Shown: positions 7,977-26,758, counted from the stretch's first letter. The stretch is 64,000 nt of DNA from Phormidesmis sp. (GCA_965248535.1 CBDFJR010000002.1:704001-768000); one strand, 5' to 3'. The notes: generated from the sequence alone by a model not told the origin. Numbers and translations are program-made.

Positions 7977-9389
7977 ATGGTTTCTAAACGAACTAAATCA
8001 AAATCTAAAAAGAAAAAAGTCACTCATGATCTGGGTATTCGTAGTGATATCTGGCAACTCGACATGACATCTGAACAGAAAGATTTGGCGCGTTTAACCG
8101 TAGCTGAATATCGTTATTTTCTAAAACCTCTTGTGTTAATCACATATTGGAACTGGGATCAATTGTCTGCGTTGACAGCGAAAGATCGAGTTAATTTCCT
8201 TGAGAAGTTGTTTAATCGGACTGCCGTAAACACAGACCCTAAATACGCTTGGTTTTTCGAGAAATCAATTGTCAATCATCCATCGTTTCGTAAATTCCCA
8301 AGCTATTTGCGACGTGCTGCAATTCAGGATGCAATCGGTATTGTGTCGAGTTTTGTAACCCGTTGGGGTATGTGGAAACGTGGTGAACGGAAACATCGTT
8401 ATGATAAAGCTCCTAAACTCACCTCAATGTGCAATAGCTATCCAGCTTTGTATCGAGGTCAACAAATCAGGTACAACGCTAACCACAGATCGGTAGATCT
8501 AAAGGTTTGGAACGGATCTGATTGGGTGTGGATCAGCGACGTGAAAGTTAAGAGTTACGGTAAGAATCGTCATTTGGTTGTTGGAAACGAAATCCAGTCG
8601 CCAAGTTTGATTGCAAACCGAGAAGGCGTTCATCTTTCGATGCCAGTGAAAGTTGCGATATCTCCTATCGAAAATGCAGACTTTGTGTGTGCAGTAGACT
8701 TAGGGATCAATAACGCTGCAACTGCTTCCATCGTGGGTAAGGACGGTACTGTAAAGGCGCGGAAGATTATCAACCCCGCTAGAGACATAGACCGAAGAGA
8801 TCAACGCAGAATGCAGGTCAAGAAGAAGTCAAGACAAACCGCAAAAATAACCGGAGAGAAACTTCCAAAAGGTTTCTGCAAAGGTTTGTACCGTAAATCA
8901 TCAAACATCAATGAAAGCATTGCTCAACAAGTTTCATTGCAAATAATCCGTTTTGCAAAAGAGCATGGTGTCAGTGTGATCGTGTTTGAGGATCTATCAA
9001 ACTGGAAAGCGAAGGCTGGAAAGAAAGGTACGTTGCACAAGCAAAAGTTTCATCAATGGTGCAAAGATCGCACGGTTGATTTAACGATGATGAAGTTTTC
9101 GGAATTGGGTGGAACCGTATCAAAAGTGAATGCAAAATACACCAGTGCATACGCCTTTGACGGGTCGGGTAAACTGAAGCGTGATAGTAAAAATTATACT
9201 CAAGCCACGTTCAGTACCGGAAAGCAATACAACGCTGATCTGTCTGCGTCGTATAACATCGGTGCTAGATATTGGTACGCCGTTCTAACCAATTCTAAGT
9301 TCATTAAGGTTTGGGAAGACAAAAGTTCTTCTCATTCACAGAGGACACCTGTAACGCTCAGTTCCTTATGGGATCTGGTTGCGACTTAA
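7977..9389 (+). CDS. tnpB: RNA-guided endonuclease TnpB, zinc-finger-less variant
   Basis: RuvC I CAVDLGINN, RuvC II IVFEDL and RuvC III YNADLSASYNI. The CxxC pairs are replaced by YTSAYAFDGSG...TFSTG. Confidence 0.9.
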   Translation: MVSKRTKSKSKKKKVTHDLGIRSDIWQLDMTSEQKDLARLTVAEYRYFLKPLVLITYWNWDQLSALTAKDRVNFLEKLFNRTAVNTDPKYAWFFEKSIVNHPSFRKFPSYLRRAAIQDAIGIVSSFVTRWGMWKRGERKHRYDKAPKLTSMCNSYPALYRGQQIRYNANHRSVDLKVWNGSDWVWISDVKVKSYGKNRHLVVGNEIQSPSLIANREGVHLSMPVKVAISPIENADFVCAVDLGINNAATASIVGKDGTVKARKIINPARDIDRRDQRRMQVKKKSRQTAKITGEKLPKGFCKGLYRKSSNINESIAQQVSLQIIRFAKEHGVSVIVFEDLSNWKAKAGKKGTLHKQKFHQWCKDRTVDLTMMKFSELGGTVSKVNAKYTSAYAFDGSGKLKRDSKNYTQATFSTGKQYNADLSASYNIGARYWYAVLTNSKFIKVWEDKSSSHSQRTPVTLSSLWDLVAT

Positions 9390-17763: not shown

Positions 17764-18003
17764 CTACTGTGCTTCTGCCTGTTGCGCCTCGTCTTCAAGG
17801 GTTTGAATGGCTACCAGCAACTCTTCTTCTTGACTCTCAAATTCTTCTTCAGGAATGTCGCCCATGTCGAAGGCCAACTGCAAGGCCAATAGGCGTTTTC
17901 CTAAATTTTCTTTGTCATCTAATTCAGTGTCGGCTCGTTCTTGAATTTGTTCGGCGATCCAGGCAAGTCCGGTGACGGGGGCAAACAGTAGGCGAAATAT
18001 CAT
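17764..18003 (-). CDS. gvpG: Gas vesicle protein GvpG
   Basis: APVTGLAWIAEQI...LQLAFDMGDIPEEEFESQEEELL, in the gvp cluster. Confidence 0.9.
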   Translation of the reverse strand: MIFRLLFAPVTGLAWIAEQIQERADTELDDKENLGKRLLALQLAFDMGDIPEEEFESQEEELLVAIQTLEDEAQQAEAQ

Positions 18004-18008
18004 AGGAT

Positions 18009-18752
18009 TTAGTTCAGCCGTTCAAACTGGGCGAAGTTGTAGGGAGCCGTAAAGTCGTTGTAGCGAATCTTTAAGCGCTGGTCAAACTGCTGATCCAATG
18101 CTTCGACCTGGGCACTAAAGGTGGCTTCTTCATCCCAATGAATCAGATAAGCCGCGTTATAAATCATCGCTTCGGTGAGCAAATCGTTTTCGACCACTTC
18201 GACCGCGAGGGAGTTGAGACTTGATTGAAATGCCTCAATAATTTGGCGTTTGCGATCGCTCATTGCCCGCTCGATCGCTTGCCCGATCGCCACAATTTCA
18301 TCCATGCTCAGAGATTTGCCCTCTAAGCGATCGCGCCGCTCTCGCAGATCAGGATCGTCTGCCATCAGCGCTTGAAGCTCTGTGTCTGCATCCCAAAACA
18401 GTTTGACGCTCACCTCACGCCGCCCGTTCAATCGTTGAAACAGCACTTCTAACGTTTCACTATGGGGAGCCGTCAACTGCTCAGTCACCGTTTCCCAATC
18501 TTCAATGATCAGCCCAAACTGAAGGGGCAAGAGAGTCCGATGACCTGCGTGCATGGCTTGTTCTAAGACTTTTTCGTGCCCTAGCAGATTTCGACGACTG
18601 GCTAAGTATCGGTCTTGTTGCGCTTCTGAATAGAGAAACGTGAACCCATCGACAATGCGCGTTTGCACGGGTTGACGATCGAGTCCTTCTAAGGCTAAAT
18701 CTTCGGGGCCGGGGGTGGGAAAAATGCCGTACAGATAAAGTCTGGGGGTCAT
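18009..18752 (-). CDS. gvpF: Gas vesicle protein GvpF/GvpL family
   Basis: LYLYGI, HEKVLE, LLPLQFG and APYNF motifs. Confidence 0.88.
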   Translation of the reverse strand: MTPRLYLYGIFPTPGPEDLALEGLDRQPVQTRIVDGFTFLYSEAQQDRYLASRRNLLGHEKVLEQAMHAGHRTLLPLQFGLIIEDWETVTEQLTAPHSETLEVLFQRLNGRREVSVKLFWDADTELQALMADDPDLRERRDRLEGKSLSMDEIVAIGQAIERAMSDRKRQIIEAFQSSLNSLAVEVVENDLLTEAMIYNAAYLIHWDEEATFSAQVEALDQQFDQRLKIRYNDFTAPYNFAQFERLN

Positions 18753-18772: not shown

Positions 18773-19228
18773 TTAGATTGGCTTTGCTGTTAGAACTAGC
18801 TGAAGCTTTGCGTGGATCAAATCTAACTGGGCCACTCCGATGTCAACGCTGCCTTCGAGCACAACGCCTGTGTTGAGAAGACGATCGAGCAATTCTAAAA
18901 TAGAAGGGCTGGCAGAGGTTTGACCCGGATAGTATCCTCCCGCTTTGGGTAATAGCGTGCCCACTTCGCCCAAGTCAATATTCAAATCGGCGGGATTGAT
19001 CTCAAAAATGTCGCAGATCTCAACCACCTGTTCTTCTAGCTTTTGCAGACTTATAGAGGCGCGATCGAGTTCTTCATCCGTGAGTTTTTCTTCTTCCATC
19101 CGCCGAATGATTTGAGCTTCCATTAACTGCCGAACTAGCTCGACCACTGTTAATAAAAGTGGAGCAAGACCCGCATCTTTACTCGATTTAGGCGCATCAA
19201 CAAAGGTCTTAGTAGGAAGATCTGTCAC
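18773..19228 (-). CDS. gvpK: Gas vesicle protein GvpK with C-terminal GvpA-like segment
   Basis: GLAPLLLTVVELVRQLMEAQ, DLNIDLG and LLDRLLNTGVV motifs. Confidence 0.92.
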   Translation of the reverse strand: MTDLPTKTFVDAPKSSKDAGLAPLLLTVVELVRQLMEAQIIRRMEEEKLTDEELDRASISLQKLEEQVVEICDIFEINPADLNIDLGEVGTLLPKAGGYYPGQTSASPSILELLDRLLNTGVVLEGSVDIGVAQLDLIHAKLQLVLTAKPI

Positions 19229-19270: not shown

Positions 19271-19465
19271 CTACAAGCTTCTGTCTAAATACAGTTGATG
19301 GAGCCATTGACGACGATCTTGTTGAGCGCGAAGCTGGGCAACTCCCGCAGAGATGCGGGCCCGATCGCTGCTTCTCAAAGACAGTCGGCTGAGTCGATTG
19401 ACCGCCTGACCACTGGCAATCACGCGGCTTGTTGCAATCTGCTTCATCGTTTTGACGGTGATCAT
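19271..19465 (-). CDS. Small basic helical protein (64 aa) between gvpJ and gvpK
   Basis: Its ATG overlaps the gvpJ stop (ATGA at 19462-19465) and it fills the gap to gvpK. Confidence 0.6.
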   Translation of the reverse strand: MITVKTMKQIATSRVIASGQAVNRLSRLSLRSSDRARISAGVAQLRAQQDRRQWLHQLYLDRSL

Positions 19466-19863
19466 AAATCTCCCAAAAGTGACTCAAGGGTGCTGGGGCT
19501 AGATTCGATCAGTTCTTTTGGGGAGGCGGGACGGAGCGATCGTAGCTCCGTTTCTAAACTCTCAACTCGCTCCATCAGTTGGCGGTTGGCATCTAGCAGC
19601 GTTTGAGACTGTTGACTAAAGTGCGGATTGTTTTCCCACCAGTTGATCCCCATTTCTCGCGCTTTATCAACTGACGCAATTAGTAGACGAATCCGAATAT
19701 TAATCAGTTCAGTCGTGGCTACCGAAATCGAGATATCGCCCGCGATCACGATGCCTTTATCTAGCACCCGCTCTAGCACGTCTGCCAACGTCGAACCTTG
19801 AGTTGACGTGGACATCGCCCTAGATGCGTCTCGTCCCATTTTGATCGGCGTGGTGGCGGTCAT
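19462..19863 (-). CDS. gvpJ: Gas vesicle protein GvpJ
   Basis: [21 protein letters not shown]...[22 protein letters not shown] overlap with gvpN. Confidence 0.93.
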
Positions 19864-21116
19864 GGTTTCACCTCGATCGGAACGGGTTGAGCCACAAATA
19901 AGCGATCGTTCTGCATCACTTGCCCTTTTTTGACCAAAATCCGAATCGCTTCGAGGGCTTGCAGCCGCGTCAAACCTAGATCGCTCTCAATCTGAGAAAG
20001 CTTAACGCCCTCTGATTTCAGCAGATATTGGTAGATGTCTTGTTCATAGTCAACCAACTCACGAGCCGCGCTGGGCGTGACTTCGGTTTCTAACTCAGTC
20101 AGTTCTCGAAAAAGTTCAGCGAGTTGCTCTTGAACGATCAAATCAGGAGTCGGAGTGGTGTCTGGGAGCGGCTTGAGCGCAGCCCCAAAGGAATCGGTGA
20201 CCAGCGTCTGTTTAGGAACGTCTATCAAGTCGTTGTGAATCAGGTCATTGAGCAGTTGCCACAGAATTTTAGTTGCCTCGTCGATCGGGATCGTGATCCG
20301 CGACAGCAAGATATCTGAGCAAATTTCTCGGAAATCAACATCCGTAGGTGAAACGGCGATCGTGTGCTCTTTGCAGACCTTGCCGATCACCAGACACGAT
20401 CTCAACCCAGAAATTTTGTCTCCCTGAGTTTTGGTGCGAAACGCCTTGACTAATCGCACAATCAACAGCGCACTGACGCGATCGATCTCGGTTTTTTGCA
20501 CCACGATCTCTTGCTGAGTTAGCTCATCAGGTTCTGGCATACTGATCGTCACCAGCCGATCCATCAAGGCATCTTGAGTAGCGTGCACCCCGTAATACTC
20601 TTCAGGATTAGAGGTGAGAATGGCGCGAAAATTCGGATCAACTCGAATATATTCGGTCTGATTGCTGCTTGGCGGCAACACCAAAAGCTTTTCTTCTAGA
20701 GCCGACAGCAACACATTGTTCACTTCAGGTCTAGAACGATTGAATTCGTCATAAATCAGGGTGAATCCTTCTCGACACGCCAGCGTCAAGCGAGAATCGA
20801 CCCAGTTTTGCCGCAGTTCGTCTTCAACTTTAATAACACTGTGAATGTAGTTATCGACGACTTTTTTGCGCGTGTAGCCAGACTGAGACCCAATTAAATC
20901 AGAACTCTTGGCCTCATCGTCGCCAAAAACCAGCATGATCGGGCGAGTCAACAGGTCTGCGAGGTGAAGCGCTAGCGTTGTCTTGCCCGTTCCGGCTGGG
21001 CCGCGGAGGTGGACTGAAAAACCAGATTGAAGATAGCGCAACGCTCGAATCGTAATCCGATCGATGGCGGGAGTGCTCACAAATCGGCGGGGGCTGGCAC
21101 GAAGAACGGTAGTCAC
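19860..21116 (-). CDS. gvpN: Gas vesicle AAA+ ATPase GvpN with extra C-terminal wHTH-like domain
   Basis: [24 protein letters not shown] and TQDALMDR motifs. GTG start at 21116 follows an AAGGA RBS. Confidence 0.95.
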
Positions 21117-21131
21117 GGGCAATCATCCTTG

Positions 21132-22310
21132 TCAAACAATAAAGTCTTCTTGAATTCGATAAACGCGATCGCGCTGAGTCACTAACCCTTTTTGCAGCAG
21201 CGATCGCAGCGTATCGACTACTTGAAAACGGCTAATTCCCATCGCTGACTCGATTTCAGTCAACCGAACCCCCTGCATCACCTCAATGTATTGATAAATT
21301 TTTTCCTCAAAAGCCGGATCGCTAATCGCGTTGATAGCAGGCTTGACCTCAGCCAGAGAAGCGGGTTGAGGCGTTTGAGTTGCAGGGCGGCTAACGGCTT
21401 TTTGCGCTGGTTTTTGCCCGATCGTTATGGGGGCGATCGCGGTCGGTGCCGGGCGAGTGGACAAAGCGCTTAAACCAGAAGACGACTGACGAGCAACAGG
21501 CTCAGAGGTCAGATCATGAGAAGCATCGTCTCCCCAAACCGTGCTTTTTAGCTCGGCTCGATAGTGGCGAAGCTGCGATCGAAAGTCTTCTAACCGCGAA
21601 AACAGAACGCGATGCTCGGTTTCTCGGTCAAGACGGCTCTGATCAAGGGTTTCAGCTAGCCGTGCAGCTTGCTCATGCCGCGCAGTTTGCACATCTGATA
21701 AATAATGGTGCACTTCAAACCGCAGATTCTCTGTAAAAGCCGCAAGATTGCGAGTCAGACGAATCTGAATTTTGAGGCGCTGCTGCCGACCTTGAGATAA
21801 GAGAGAATGCGTTTCTAGCTGCAAGTCTTGAATCTCTGCTTGAACATCTTGCCTCAAAGCCGTGACGGTTTCGTCAAGAACTGCCCGAAAGGTTTGCAGG
21901 TCGTCTGCCAATTGTTGAGCCATCATCTGCCGATCGGCTTCGGCGACGGTCAAAAAATCGGCTGTTTGATCCTGAAGTGCCTGGACAAATTCACGCAGTT
22001 GACTTGCGACTCGCTGAGATTGAGAGTGACGACGATCGCTGACGGTGGTGAGAAAGTCTTGAATCTCGCGGTGCCGTTCCATGCAGTGTTGCTGTAATTC
22101 TACAGAGAAGCGTTGAAATTCTATTGTGCGATCACGATCGGCACTGGCAAGCGTGACGCGAACTTGGCTGAGATCGCTACGCAGCGCAGAGGCAGACTCT
22201 TGACGGTCTTTTTGAACGATCGTCAGGGTCTCAAAAACCTGTTGGCGGCGTTGAGTAGCTTCGTGCTGGCGTTGCTGGCGTTGCTGCTGCCAGGAATCTT
22301 TCAAAGCCAT
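21132..22310 (-). CDS. gvpC: GvpC-like protein with degenerate 33-aa repeats, Pro/Ala linker and C-terminal wHTH-like domain
   Basis: Lies between gvpA and gvpN. Q/R-rich helical repeats with DFL recurring at 33-aa spacing; the repeat region ends in STVWG. Confidence 0.8.
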   Translation of the reverse strand: MALKDSWQQQRQQRQHEATQRRQQVFETLTIVQKDRQESASALRSDLSQVRVTLASADRDRTIEFQRFSVELQQHCMERHREIQDFLTTVSDRRHSQSQRVASQLREFVQALQDQTADFLTVAEADRQMMAQQLADDLQTFRAVLDETVTALRQDVQAEIQDLQLETHSLLSQGRQQRLKIQIRLTRNLAAFTENLRFEVHHYLSDVQTARHEQAARLAETLDQSRLDRETEHRVLFSRLEDFRSQLRHYRAELKSTVWGDDASHDLTSEPVARQSSSGLSALSTRPAPTAIAPITIGQKPAQKAVSRPATQTPQPASLAEVKPAINAISDPAFEEKIYQYIEVMQGVRLTEIESAMGISRFQVVDTLRSLLQKGLVTQRDRVYRIQEDFIV

Positions 22311-22397: not shown

Positions 22398-22616
22398 CTA
22401 GCTTGCAGGAACGGCTGCTTGAGAGGTCAAACCGACTGCTTCTGCATATTTCAAGTAGGTTTCGACGGATGCAATCACGACACGAGCCTCGATCGCCAAT
22501 AGCTCAATGCCTACGAGAGAGACGCGAACCCAAGCATCAATGACAATGCCTTTGTCAAGAATGCGATCGACCACTTCAGCCAGACTAGACGAAGAGTTTA
22601 CTTTTTCAACAGCCAT
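22398..22616 (-). CDS. gvpA: Major gas vesicle structural protein GvpA
   Basis: [40 protein letters not shown]...YLKYAEAVG, 72 aa from ATG 22616. Confidence 0.98.
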
Positions 22617-22887
22617 GGTTGTAATTCCCTGAGAGTGCGGTGATTTTAATCGGCCTAGCCTTCGCTTTAGACTTGCTTCAGAGGTTTCGGCTTCTACTGT
22701 TAAGGTAAGCTTCACATCCCCCAAACTCGCATAGCGCAAACACTGAACCTACCGAGGTAAGCTTTTCGATAAGTAGCGAAATCACTGACTCTTTTCGTTT
22801 GATTCCAATCTCAATTCTCACTTTTCACCGATTGCTTAAGCTCAGTGCAGGTATTTTCAACGAGAAACCCCCTACTGATTTATCTAG

Positions 22888-24708
22888 CTAAGATGAACCA
22901 GTCCGACGCTGACTGAGCAGGGTTTGATAAGCCGCCATAAAGTCAGCCATTGTGATTTGAATGCAAAGCGGGTCGGTTAGCCCTTGGGTGCGATAACGAC
23001 GAATGGCTTCTAGCGCCGCTTGGTTGCTGAGAAGGGCCAAGTCTGCACCGTTCCAGCCTGTGGTTTGATGCGCTAGGCTCGTTAAGTCAACGTCTGCGAG
23101 GGGACGATCGCGGTTATGAACTTGCAAAATCGATCGCCGACTCGTTTCATCTGGCAAGTCTACTTTTAGCTGAAGATCAAGCCGTCCGGCTCTCAATAGG
23201 GCTGGATCGATCGCGTCAGGGCGGTTGGTGGCTCCGATCAGCAGTACATCCACACAGGCTTGCAGACCATCTAGCTCTGTCAAGAGTTGACCGACCACCC
23301 GATCGCTCACGCCAGAATCGCCATTAAATTTTCCGCGCACCGGAGCTAACGTATCAATTTCGTCAATAAAAATTACGCAGGGAGAAGCTTGGCGCGCTTT
23401 GGCAAAGAGGTCTCTCACCTCTTGTTCGGCTGCGCCCACCCAGCGACTTAACAACTCAGCCCCGTTGATGGCGATAAAGTTGGCTCTGGCTTGAGACGCG
23501 ATCGCTTTAGCCAGCAATGTTTTTCCAGTTCCTGGCGGACCCCACAGCAAAATTCCACGAGGAGCCTTTGCGCCTGTCTGCTGATAGAGTTCGGGATACA
23601 GCAACGCCCCTTCGACCGATTCTTGCAGGGTTTGCTTAATGTCTTTTAAGCCACCAATTTCATCCCACGAGAGATTGGGCGACTCGATTTCGACCGATCG
23701 CAGCACCGAGGGTTTTATCTCTCTCAGAGCGTGCAGAAAGTCAGATGGCTCGATTGTCATCACCTCTGGGAGCGGCGCTTGAAGTGACGGCACTTGCCGA
23801 CGCAGCGCGGTGTAAGCGGCTTTCTGGCAGACTGCTTTGAGATCAGCGCCCACCATGCCCACGGAGAGATCGGCGATCGTGCCCAAGTCTACGGCTCGAT
23901 CGAGCGGCATTGCACGAGTGAGAATCGTGAGAATCTCTAGCCGCCCGTTGCGATCGGGCACCCGATATTGCACTTCACGATCAAACCGACCCGGCCGACG
24001 CAATGCCGGATCGAGATGATCGGGGCGGTTGGTGGCAGCCAGCACGATTACGCCTTCGGTGCGCGCAAAGCCATCCATTAACGTCAGCAGTTGGGCAACG
24101 ACGCGCTTTTCGACTTCGCCTTCGACTTTGCTGCGATCGGGGGCGAGACTGTCTATTTCATCAATAAAAATCAGGCAAGGAGCCGCTTTTGCAGCTTTCT
24201 CAAACACGCCTCGCAAGCGCGTTTCGGCCTCTCCGTAATATTTGCCCATGATTTCCGGCCCGGCGATCGCGATGTAGCTCACGCCCAATTCTTCAGCTAA
24301 AACGCGAGCCGTCAAGGTTTTTCCAGTTCCCGGCGGGCCGACCAGCAAAACGCCTTTGACCGCTTCTAACCCCAGCCTCGCCAACAAATCAGGACGCTTG
24401 AGAGGAATCTCAATCAGTTCTTTGAGTTCTTTCATGACCTCTCCCAATCCCCCCACATCCTTTAAAGAAGCCGGGTTGTCTTGACTGGGAGGAGTCACCA
24501 CCACCTCTGGCTCTTTAACCGAGGCGGCATCGTCTACTCGGATGCGACTCACGCCAACACTGCTGGGACTATTGCCCCGACGCGGAATGCTGCTGAGATG
24601 GCGGGAATTAATCTGAATATCCGTCTTGAGTTCTCCCTTCTCAGCTTTTTCTTCTAACGCTTTAGCTAGTTCTAATAACTGCTCGAACCCTTTAAAAAAA
24701 TCACTCAT
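22888..24708 (-). CDS. Cdc48/p97-like tandem AAA+ ATPase lacking the usual N-domain
   Basis: Two GPPGTGKT Walker A and two FIDEID Walker B motifs, ATNRP, RRPGRFDRE and RAGRLD. Start probably ATG 24708. Confidence 0.9.
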   Translation of the reverse strand: MSDFFKGFEQLLELAKALEEKAEKGELKTDIQINSRHLSSIPRRGNSPSSVGVSRIRVDDAASVKEPEVVVTPPSQDNPASLKDVGGLGEVMKELKELIEIPLKRPDLLARLGLEAVKGVLLVGPPGTGKTLTARVLAEELGVSYIAIAGPEIMGKYYGEAETRLRGVFEKAAKAAPCLIFIDEIDSLAPDRSKVEGEVEKRVVAQLLTLMDGFARTEGVIVLAATNRPDHLDPALRRPGRFDREVQYRVPDRNGRLEILTILTRAMPLDRAVDLGTIADLSVGMVGADLKAVCQKAAYTALRRQVPSLQAPLPEVMTIEPSDFLHALREIKPSVLRSVEIESPNLSWDEIGGLKDIKQTLQESVEGALLYPELYQQTGAKAPRGILLWGPPGTGKTLLAKAIASQARANFIAINGAELLSRWVGAAEQEVRDLFAKARQASPCVIFIDEIDTLAPVRGKFNGDSGVSDRVVGQLLTELDGLQACVDVLLIGATNRPDAIDPALLRAGRLDLQLKVDLPDETSRRSILQVHNRDRPLADVDLTSLAHQTTGWNGADLALLSNQAALEAIRRYRTQGLTDPLCIQITMADFMAAYQTLLSQRRTGSS

Positions 24709-24862
24709 TGGCTCATAGCGCTCTACGCAAAATGGGTTGATCAAAGAATCTCGATCGCCGTCTCCTTTCAGCCCGAAGCATGGGGAAACCTAAGATCAAG
24801 TGTTCCCCGAAAGACTTTTCCGAGATCCTTCTCCCTGTTGCAGACCTTATCAAAGCGCCCTT

Positions 24863-26758
24863 ATGAACCAATTTGACTCGCTGAATCTCGTCATGTTTAG
24901 CGGTAAAGGAGGAGTCGGAAAAACAACGATCTCCTGTGGGTTTGCTCGACGATGGGCAAAACAGTTTCCTGACGAAAAGATTTTGCTGCTGTCTACCGAT
25001 CCGGCTCATTCTCTAGGGGATGTGCTGCAACTAGAAGTCAGCAATGCTCCGCAGTCAGCCCAAGATTTGCCTAACTTAAGCATTAGGGCGCTAGATGCCG
25101 AAGTGCTGCTGCAAGACTTTAAAACGCTCTATGGAACCGTGCTAGAACTGCTGGTGGAGCGAGGCAGCTTTGTTCAAAAAGAGGACTTGTCGCCGATTTG
25201 GGATTTGAGTTGGCCTGGGCTTGACGAACTCATGGGCATTTTAGAAATTCAGCGATTGCTGCGAGAAAAAGTCGTCGATCGCGTCGTTGTAGACATGGCT
25301 CCTAGCGGCCACACATTAAATCTCTTCAGCTTGATGGATTTTCTAGATGAATTTTTGGCCGCCCTGGCGCTATTTCAAGAAAAGCATCAAGTGATTCGTC
25401 AGACTTTCACAGGGCGCTACACGTCAGATGAGGCCGATCAGTTCTTATCAGAGATGAAATCAGATCTCGCAAACGGGCGGCAACTCCTGCAAGATCAAAC
25501 CCAAACCGCCTGCTTAGTGGTCGCGATCGCTGAGTGGATGAGTCTCTTAGAAACTAAGCGATTTCTAGAGGCGCTAGAAGTGCTTCACATTCCCTTCGGG
25601 GGCTTGTTCATCAATCAAATTCTGTCGCCCACCAGCAGCGCCGAGCCATACGGCGATCAGCAGCACATTATTGTTAAGTTTCTCGATTTGATCAGATCCG
25701 AGCCAGTTCTGATCTCCTTTCAACAGCCTTCAGAGCCGATCGGGGCGGTGGCGATCGACCAATTAATCAGCCAAGTCCAGATCCCAGATACGCCATCTTC
25801 TCAGCTAGTTTCGCAACCGACTGAGTTTCCCCAACCCCTTTCACCGGGTCTGGGAGACTTTATAGCCGAAGGTCGGCAACTGATCATCGTGGGTGGAAAA
25901 GGCGGAGTGGGCAAAACGACGGTAGCGGCAGCGATCGCTTGGGGCATGGCACACCAGCATCCTGAAAAGAACGTTCGGGTGATCTCGATCGATCCGGCTC
26001 ATTCCTTAGGCGACGCACTGGGAACTCAGCTTGAACATTTGCCGACATCCGTGACCGCAAATCTGAGCGCTCAAGAAATCGATGCTCATCAAGTTCTTGA
26101 ACAATTTCGAGAAGACTATCTCTGGGAACTTGCAGAGATGATGAGTGGTGAATCTAGCACAGCAGACAGCAGCCTCAAGATTGCCTATGCCCCAGAAGCG
26201 TGGCGAAGAATCGTTTCTCAAGCACTTCCAGGCATTGACGAAATGCTGTCTCTGATTAGAGTCATGGAGTTATTAGAGTCTAAAGAACAAGATTTAATTG
26301 TTCTAGACAGCGCTCCTACTGGGCATTTGCTGCGATTTTTAGAAATGCCAACCGCTCTGGGTGACTGGTTGTCGTGGATCTTTAAACTGTGGATCAAATA
26401 TCAAGACGTGCTGGGACGCACAGAGTTAATGGGGCGGCTCCGCACTCTGCGCCAGCGAGTGATGCAGACTCAAAAAAAGCTGAAAGACCCTCAGCACACA
26501 GAGTTTATTGGTGTGTTTCAGTCACGATCGGCGATTGTTGCCGAAACAAAACGACTCTCAGACTCTCTGACAACCCTGGGCATTAGCCAGCGCTATCTAG
26601 TCAACAATCGGTGTGAACCAGAGAATCTGATTTCGGCGAGTCTTTTTCCGAGTCAAGCGATCGTGCATTTGCCCCGGCTGCCGCGCTCAATTCCTCCCGC
26701 CGAACAGGTTGCAGGAGCCGCTCATCTGCTTTTCTCTAAGATTGACGATAATCGATGA
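24863..26758 (+). CDS. Tandem ArsA/Get3 (TRC40)-family ATPase
   Basis: Two GKGGVGKTT and two DPAHSLGD motifs, plus DMAPSGH and DSAPTGH. Start probably ATG 24863. Confidence 0.9.
   Translation: MNQFDSLNLVMFSGKGGVGKTTISCGFARRWAKQFPDEKILLLSTDPAHSLGDVLQLEVSNAPQSAQDLPNLSIRALDAEVLLQDFKTLYGTVLELLVERGSFVQKEDLSPIWDLSWPGLDELMGILEIQRLLREKVVDRVVVDMAPSGHTLNLFSLMDFLDEFLAALALFQEKHQVIRQTFTGRYTSDEADQFLSEMKSDLANGRQLLQDQTQTACLVVAIAEWMSLLETKRFLEALEVLHIPFGGLFINQILSPTSSAEPYGDQQHIIVKFLDLIRSEPVLISFQQPSEPIGAVAIDQLISQVQIPDTPSSQLVSQPTEFPQPLSPGLGDFIAEGRQLIIVGGKGGVGKTTVAAAIAWGMAHQHPEKNVRVISIDPAHSLGDALGTQLEHLPTSVTANLSAQEIDAHQVLEQFREDYLWELAEMMSGESSTADSSLKIAYAPEAWRRIVSQALPGIDEMLSLIRVMELLESKEQDLIVLDSAPTGHLLRFLEMPTALGDWLSWIFKLWIKYQDVLGRTELMGRLRTLRQRVMQTQKKLKDPQHTEFIGVFQSRSAIVAETKRLSDSLTTLGISQRYLVNNRCEPENLISASLFPSQAIVHLPRLPRSIPPAEQVAGAAHLLFSKIDDNR

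Follow-up and report, generated by a model that had tools for sequence, protein, structure and literature searches.

We find that two gas-vesicle proteins of Phormidesmis sp., GvpC and the AAA+ ATPase GvpN, end in copies of one small domain that are homologous by sequence comparison and predicted to fold as winged helices. We speculate that this domain binds chromosomal DNA and tethers gas vesicles and GvpN to the nucleoid, a reading that we hold by analogy with other bacterial organelles and at somewhat short of an even chance; docking to other proteins is almost as likely.

Two carriers in one gas-vesicle cluster

The window, a stretch of 64,000 nucleotides (GCA_965248535.1 CBDFJR010000002.1:704001-768000), contains a complete gas-vesicle cluster on its minus strand, in the order Cdc48-like ATPase, gvpA, gvpC, gvpN, gvpJ, a 64-codon ORF, gvpK, gvpF and gvpG. 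Its features are:

24800..26758, plus strand: ArsA/Get3-like ATPase, divergent from the cluster (context gene; Pfam/family profile matches)
22888..24708, minus strand: Cdc48-like double AAA ATPase, upstream of gvpA (context gene; Pfam/family profile matches)
22398..22616, minus strand: gvpA, major gas-vesicle wall protein, 72 aa (PF00741 and NF006874 above cut-off)
21132..22310, minus strand: gvpC, long form, 392 aa, with helical rod, linker and predicted winged-helix tail (HHalign, AlphaFold model)
21531..22310, minus strand: GvpC helical rod, residues 1-260, degenerate 33-residue repeats ending in a VWG motif
21312..21530, minus strand: GvpC Pro/Ala/Ser/Thr-rich linker, residues 261-333 (low pLDDT)
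21159..21311, minus strand: GvpC predicted winged-helix tail, residues 334-384 (R361, D381, R382 and Y384 invariant)
19860..21122, minus strand: gvpN, AAA+ ATPase, 420 aa (TIGR02640)
20295..21083, minus strand: GvpN ATPase core, residues 14-276 (TIGR02640 match)
20049..20234, minus strand: GvpN variable acidic linker, about residues 297-358 (length variation, dN/dS)
19896..20048, minus strand: GvpN predicted winged-helix tail, residues 359-409 (R386 invariant)
19462..19863, minus strand: gvpJ, overlapping the gvpN stop (PF00741)
19271..19465, minus strand: 64-codon ORF between gvpJ and gvpK, conserved, without a Pfam match
18773..19228, minus strand: gvpK (PF05121)
18009..18752, minus strand: gvpF (PF06386/NF052351)
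17764..18003, minus strand: gvpG (PF05120)

Several smaller observations concern the neighbourhood of the two carriers. The gvpA gene is single copy, with one full-length match in the genome, and upstream of it (window ~22620-22750, minus strand) lie a short element of conserved sequence and what may be a leader hairpin, both of which recur in part of the Leptolyngbyaceae/Oculatellaceae loci; the element is possibly a promoter or an RNA element. A second Cdc48-like ATPase, 71% identical to the copy beside the cluster, is encoded elsewhere in the genome (G000:C5:2175565-2177334). An unnamed protein of ~88 residues is encoded near the Cdc48-like gene (for example L094:11374-11637) in 34 gas-vesicle loci, with and without tails, and the 64-codon ORF between gvpJ and gvpK is present in 15 of the loci examined.

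By sequence comparison the 392-residue carrier is a true GvpC, despite the failure of the Pfam scan to match PF01304 in the window protein, a miss that we attribute to the degeneracy of its repeats; a close homologue scores just under the cut-off. The gene occupies the slot of canonical gvpC, between gvpA and gvpN, and its profile aligns with those of short canonical GvpCs (HHalign 99.2%, E 7e-20). Its strongest self-similarity falls at an offset of 33 residues, AlphaFold predicts the rod as one helix over residues 2-257, and V258-W259-G260 is conserved in more than 90%. Short GvpCs end directly after the conserved IFG/VWG motif, whereas the long form carries the same motif and then adds a linker and a folded domain. 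From this homology, the long GvpC may be expected to coat and stiffen vesicles. The other carrier likewise retains the canonical part of its family, with an intact and conserved AAA+ core that scores 387 bits against TIGR02640 (cut-off 267). The likely start of gvpN is a GTG at 21116, because homologues begin there, and a Glu-Glu pair near the GvpC end was disregarded, since it probably just reflects the gvpN ribosome-binding site.

The initial annotation had described both tails as following flexible Pro/Thr/Ala linkers. This fits GvpC, whose Pro/Ala/Ser/Thr-rich linker is predicted to be disordered (pLDDT mostly <50 over residues 253-327 of the AlphaFold model) and varies from 36 to 134 aa across 81 loci, but that of GvpN has a more acidic composition (14% Glu in the family as a whole) and ranges from 7 to 166 aa in 70 loci. 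The same annotation had taken canonical GvpC to consist of repeats only, which is accurate for the short cyanobacterial type but not in general, since longer GvpCs with C-terminal domains have been published for haloarchaea and for benthic Planktothrix. In the latter genus, excerpts of Pancrace et al. 2017 (PMC5259702) describe a 40-kDa GvpC40 of non-planktic (benthic/biphasic) strains, with degenerate 33-residue repeats and a conserved 60-residue C-terminus that is shared with the GvpC of Geitlerinema PCC 7407, and with a 28-residue stretch 64% identical to GvpN. Likened by description rather than by sequence alignment, this C-terminus appears to be the same feature as the tail described here, and the core GvpC-GvpN similarity is thus already in print. 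That account covers one genus and, in the passages available, names no fold or function; we add a model-based winged-helix assignment, which to this extent is new, together with a phylum-wide survey, a measure of selection and a pattern of loss. A search of the open-access literature found no paper naming a winged-helix fold for the GvpC or GvpN tail.

Both 51-residue tails lie on the minus strand at the positions originally assigned to them, and the 22/51 gap-free identities counted there were reproduced, with 39/51 positions similar. Local alignment of the full-length proteins scores 128, a value that 0/2000 shuffles reach (mean 40, maximum 105), and a profile built from relatives finds exactly two strong matches genome-wide, the GvpC and GvpN tails. 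At the DNA level the tails share only 86/153 positions and are therefore not a recent copy of one another. Recent copying or gene conversion was likewise rejected as the main story for the family, in which identity between the two tails is 0.428 within genomes vs 0.418 across genomes (79 loci); the partner tail from the same genome ranks in the top tenth for 21/79 loci, a mild excess that kinship may explain. In the tail tree (56 columns, weak support) the GvpC and GvpN labels change 5 times, vs 40 for shuffles. Because the tails thus cluster mostly by the protein that carries them, the sequences point to an old duplication.

Fold, conserved surface and selection

Both tails are predicted to be winged helices, the GvpC tail from a structural model and the GvpN tail from its sequence, in agreement with the helix-turn-helix-like pattern noticed at the outset. 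AlphaFold models the GvpC tail as helix-helix-helix-strand-strand (pLDDT 88), that is, three helices and a short hairpin wing, and in the full-length model a compact C-terminal domain (~332-386, pLDDT 92-96) stands behind the disordered linker. When cut out, both tails pass the TrmB winged-helix family PF01978 (GvpC 25.8 bits, GvpN 26.0, cut-off 25.6); scanned as full proteins, GvpN passes (30.0) and GvpC falls below (21.4). Across 75 members of the tail family the Pfam matches are mostly to DNA-binding winged-helix transcription-factor families, with TrmB matched by 67/75 and MarR_2 by 39/75, and the best PDB profile matches land on the recognition helix of CodY (E 0.001).

Foldseek returned no match at E 0.001 or better. 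Structural comparison places MecR2 at the top (Z 11.6, rmsd 1.0, 59 aligned), followed by a Z-alpha domain (Z 11.0), a Sulfolobus DNA-binding protein (10.9), ESCRT-II (10.4) and RPA32C (9.5). DNA- and protein-binding winged helices are thus nearly tied, and the fold leaves the choice between a DNA and a protein ligand undecided. The Z-alpha signature comprises Asn, Tyr and Trp. Z-alpha stands second in the structural ranking and gives weak profile matches (E 0.03-0.1); no Z-alpha family is among the family matches listed, and helix 3 of the tail lacks a conserved Tyr. The likeness to ESCRT/Cdv systems raised in the initial annotation reduces to a shared fold: ESCRT-II is one of many near-tied structural matches, and the CdvB family NF041008 scores 15 bits against a cut-off of 370.

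The domain also has a conserved polar surface. In 63 GvpC tails, R349, R361, Q363, D366, R369, Q379, R380, D381 and R382 are kept in 87-100%, and they map to the beginning of helix 2, to helix 3 and to the wing, with acidic residues among them as well as several arginines. Winged helices contact DNA through helix 3 and the wing, as described in part of PMC5314169. The window tails are nonetheless net neutral, each with 7 basic and 7 acidic residues in 51, and the family medians of net charge are +2 and +1.

A conserved, selected function of both tails is supported by their substitution patterns. In 19 pairs with both tails, picked by hand and in some cases sharing a member, both domains are under strong purifying selection, with a dN/dS of 0.078 in GvpC and 0.089 in GvpN, against 0.164 for the GvpC rod, 0.038 for the GvpN ATPase core and ~0.4 for the linkers (GvpC 0.41, GvpN 0.38). 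The GvpC tail is thus under tighter constraint than the putatively vesicle-binding rod. In 7 similarly chosen pairs from GvpN-only loci, the GvpN tail is at 0.176, which is still purifying. Where GvpC has lost its tail, the GvpN tail retains its hydrophobic core and loses the helix-3/wing recognition surface: the 9 GvpN-only tails, all from one clade, match the GvpC surface consensus at 2.6/13 positions vs 8.0/13 for the 57 GvpN tails paired with a GvpC tail. At the core positions the two sets score alike (9.3 and 8.9 of 15). GvpC-only loci retain the surface (11.5/13, 4 rows), a value that is circular inasmuch as the 13 positions were chosen from the GvpC conservation table.

Distribution and loss across cyanobacteria

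Of 401 genomes drawn evenly across the phylum, 51 carry gvpN, at 52 loci. Sixteen of these loci have both tails, 9 have the GvpN tail only, none has the GvpC tail only and 27 have neither; counted by genome, the figures are 16 with both, 8 with the GvpN tail only and 27 with neither. The two counts differ because one genome (G395) contains two gas-vesicle clusters (L093 and L130), of which one carries both tails and the other belongs to the short-GvpC type. A set of 80 named loci, chosen by similarity to the window GvpN and biased accordingly, comprises 63 with both tails, 5 with GvpC only, 4 with GvpN only (one of which has a frameshifted GvpC tail) and 8 with neither, and one of its loci with both has a split gvpN. 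The question of whether the two fusions co-occur thus has a mixed answer: they are mostly found together, but GvpN-only and GvpC-only loci both exist, and with 27/51 gvpN genomes carrying neither tail the domain is dispensable in about half of those sampled. Among the loci of the even draw and the window, both-tail loci show at most one gvpA (16/16, one cut off by a contig end), and loci without the GvpC tail have up to eight copies.

All 41 genome-wide tail matches at E 1e-12 or better fall in gvp loci of the even draw. Weaker matches set in at 3e-8, and a Pfam scan of a single one of them identified a DtxR-type repressor. A search of 1.84 billion representatives gave 399 matches, of which the best 150 comprise 125 GvpC, 8 GvpN and 17 that look like linker-plus-tail fragments. 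Among these best 150 of 399 we found no free-standing tail domain (three short forms lie on contigs <1 kb) and no TrmB/MarR/CodY-type dimerisation or effector domain beside a tail. A search restricted to longer proteins gave 96 matches, whose named members are annotated as GvpC, GvpN, ATPase or hypothetical. The three proteobacterial clusters and one haloarchaeal plasmid cluster searched yielded no copy of the tail.

On a tree of the GvpN core (unrooted and built by a quick method, with 89/133 rows left after removal of near-copies), the true GvpN-only loci all belong to a single 19-row clade that has full support and short canonical GvpC, and in which 10 rows also lack the GvpN tail. To explain the distribution, the GvpC tail must change state 5 times and the GvpN tail 12 times. 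The unrooted tree does not by itself give the direction of these changes, but decayed remnants past the gvpN stop indicate that loss has happened. The clearest is in L085, where a decayed GvpN tail, itself interrupted by two stops, sits immediately beyond the gvpN stop (near 8317-8448, minus strand, E 3e-6); weaker GvpN-tail remnants occur in L086, L091 and L109, and decayed or truncated remnants at or past the gvpN stop are also found across L103-L109. The sequences thus suggest that tails were lost in several lineages.

What the tails may bind

We tentatively favour a DNA tether because DNA-binding-type folds have been captured repeatedly at the GvpC C-terminus and because there are precedents in PhaM, PhaF, PhaH and EutK. 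The first three, described in parts of a 2025 review of bacterial organelle positioning (PMC13052382), are nucleoid tethers of polyester granules, with the N-terminus on the organelle and the C-terminus on DNA; that review has zero occurrences of 'gas vesicle'. They share with the long GvpC, as envisaged here, an organelle-binding N-terminus and a C-terminal domain of DNA-binding type, and they serve as our working model, but they belong to another organelle, use histone-like or helix-hairpin-helix folds, have demonstrated DNA binding and are not homologous to the Gvp tails. EutK is a microcompartment shell protein with a C-terminal helix-turn-helix of unknown role, according to a passage of PMC5821096. 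It too joins an organelle shell protein to a helix-turn-helix, and EutK_C is among the Atlas look-alikes of the tail (rank 27, score 0.92); it differs in its organelle, and that passage mentions no matching copy on an ATPase.

By analogy, the GvpC rod would coat the vesicle as canonical GvpC does and display many tails, and the weak DNA binding of single domains would add up through the GvpC array and GvpN oligomers. Such a tether could keep GvpN and growing vesicles in one place at the nucleoid and distribute vesicles between daughter cells, much as PhaM, PhaF and PhaH do for polyester granules. The GvpC copy would be the primary one of the two, with the GvpN copy in an accessory role; once a lineage had dropped the GvpC tail, its GvpN surface would have drifted, and its GvpN tail would often have been lost.

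The fold and family matches, mostly to DNA-binding winged helices, the position of the conserved polar residues on helix 3 and the wing, the tighter constraint on the GvpC tail than on the rod, and the Ros/MucR-type domain at the end of Halobacterium GvpC (described below) argue for the DNA tether. Against it stand the near-neutral charge of the tails, the conserved acidic residues in helix 3 and wing, the nearly equal fit of protein-binding winged helices such as ESCRT-II and RPA32C, and the 27/51 gvpN genomes with neither tail. So strictly conserved a surface points to a specific ligand, but the searches for a DNA motif recovered none. In the portion of PMC5259702 that compares them, a benthic Planktothrix with long GvpC and a planktic one without it are alike in aerotope size and abundance. 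The HIP1 repeat was considered as the ligand and set aside: it is denser in both-tail loci (median 11 vs ~3 per 10 kb), but this is confounded with GC and lineage, and there are counterexamples in one both-tail locus without HIP1 and in HIP1-rich Laspinema loci without tails.

It is also possible, and almost as likely, that the tail is a protein-docking module: GvpC tails could bind each other in a coat mesh or in vesicle bundling, the GvpN copy could dock the ATPase on GvpC-coated shells, or both could bind a third Gvp protein. Docking would account simply for the same domain on both GvpC and GvpN, would suit a near-neutral surface with acidic and basic residues both conserved, and would explain why the GvpN surface decays where GvpC lacks a tail and the core does not, and why GvpC-only loci retain the surface. 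But the GvpN-only tails all belong to one clade, so that their decay happened once, and it would be expected just as much if a shared DNA function had been lost. There is a parallel in haloarchaea, where, as reported in parts of PMC9372576, a non-homologous GvpC C-terminal domain associates with itself and binds GvpN in split-GFP tests, with GvpC, N, O, F, H, I and L all listed as protein partners, which also speaks against the DNA tether. The signal of residue co-variation between the tails disappeared on correction for the tree, and GvpA, N, J, K, F, G, Cdc48 and ArsA contain no convincing co-varying site, the best GvpN sites being no better than control. One of these, D56, was promising as a co-evolving docking site, but a control with deep tail-bearing lineages was similar (2 vs 1 columns); co-variation of single tail positions was not significant on independent pairs. 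That no co-varying site passed its control, and that Cdc48-like, ArsA-like and GvpF proteins do not track the tails, fits the DNA tether. The neighbouring ATPases had been proposed as partners of the tails on the model of ESCRT/Cdv systems. Both genes do flank the cluster here and in many loci, and ESCRT-II is among the structural matches, but we consider this docking very unlikely: among 26 chosen gvpN genomes the Cdc48-like gene is present in 25/26, the ArsA-like gene in 24/26 and gvpF in 26/26 whatever the tail state, so none of them is marked as a partner, ArsA was not found with the query used in one both-tail genome, and CdvB is far below its cut-off.

Autoregulation, also raised initially, would have free GvpC or GvpN bind the gvp promoter or mRNA leader and feed back once vesicle surfaces are saturated. 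The transcription-factor family matches, the strictly conserved recognition helix with its suggestion of a specific ligand, and the conserved leader element in part of the set would suit such a role, which we nonetheless regard as improbable. The helix is conserved in >90% of GvpC tails, yet in the 300 bases upstream of gvpA no shared operator emerged: the best 7-mer occurs in 14/58 loci, against a maximum of 15 in shuffles, and palindromes were not conspicuous in a scan that could miss degenerate or distant sites. A dimerisation or effector domain next to the tail and a free-standing form of the domain were likewise not found among the best matches. That the tails are leftovers without present function, as their absence from 27/51 genomes and the decayed remnants might suggest, is scarcely credible given dN/dS of 0.078 and 0.089 where both are present, vs ~0.4 in the adjoining linkers.

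Returning to the DNA tether, a bolder extension of it, which we rate as conceivable but doubtful, is that many filamentous-cyanobacterial gas vesicles are nucleoid-tethered organelles. GvpC would be a two-ended tether with its winged helix gripping DNA, the GvpN copy would let vesicles be nucleated and grown on the chromosome, haloarchaea would have converged on the same arrangement via a Ros/MucR finger, and short GvpCs would be truncations that gave up the tether. In gvpC of Halobacterium salinarum NRC-1 pNRC100 (L137:2667-3812), residues 317-371 pass Pfam ROS_MUCR (28.3 bits, cut-off 25.4). Ros/MucR proteins bind DNA. Judged by this match, the end of Halobacterium GvpC would be a second DNA-binding-type fold in the same slot. 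Like the cyanobacterial tail it is a small globular domain on a linker after GvpC repeats, but its fold is unrelated, with no profile similarity to that tail, and haloarchaeal GvpN lacks such a tail. The domain is called a zinc-finger motif in passages of two papers, PMC9372576 among them, where it is protein binding that was tested.

Whichever ligand applies, a domain of 55 residues that can be deleted or point-mutated makes vesicle positioning and inheritance testable, and with them the action of GvpN on the shell, a standing question according to a passage of PMC10903477. If the tail is indeed a DNA tether or a docking tag, it could become a handle for engineering vesicle position or clustering; in Bacillus, part of a preprint reports, clustering of gas vesicles is driven by GvpU (bioRxiv 2023.06.01.543273). 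The present survey also suggests that the short GvpCs, which have been studied most, are not the sole and perhaps not the original form. Two further cyanobacterial GvpCs (L126:9586-10608 and L128:7152-8111) carry, after a linker, a different conserved helical domain of ~65 residues, which is not detectably homologous to the winged helix by HHalign, weakly resembles helix-turn-helix models and belongs to an Atlas cluster of 133 members, mostly from cyanobacteria.
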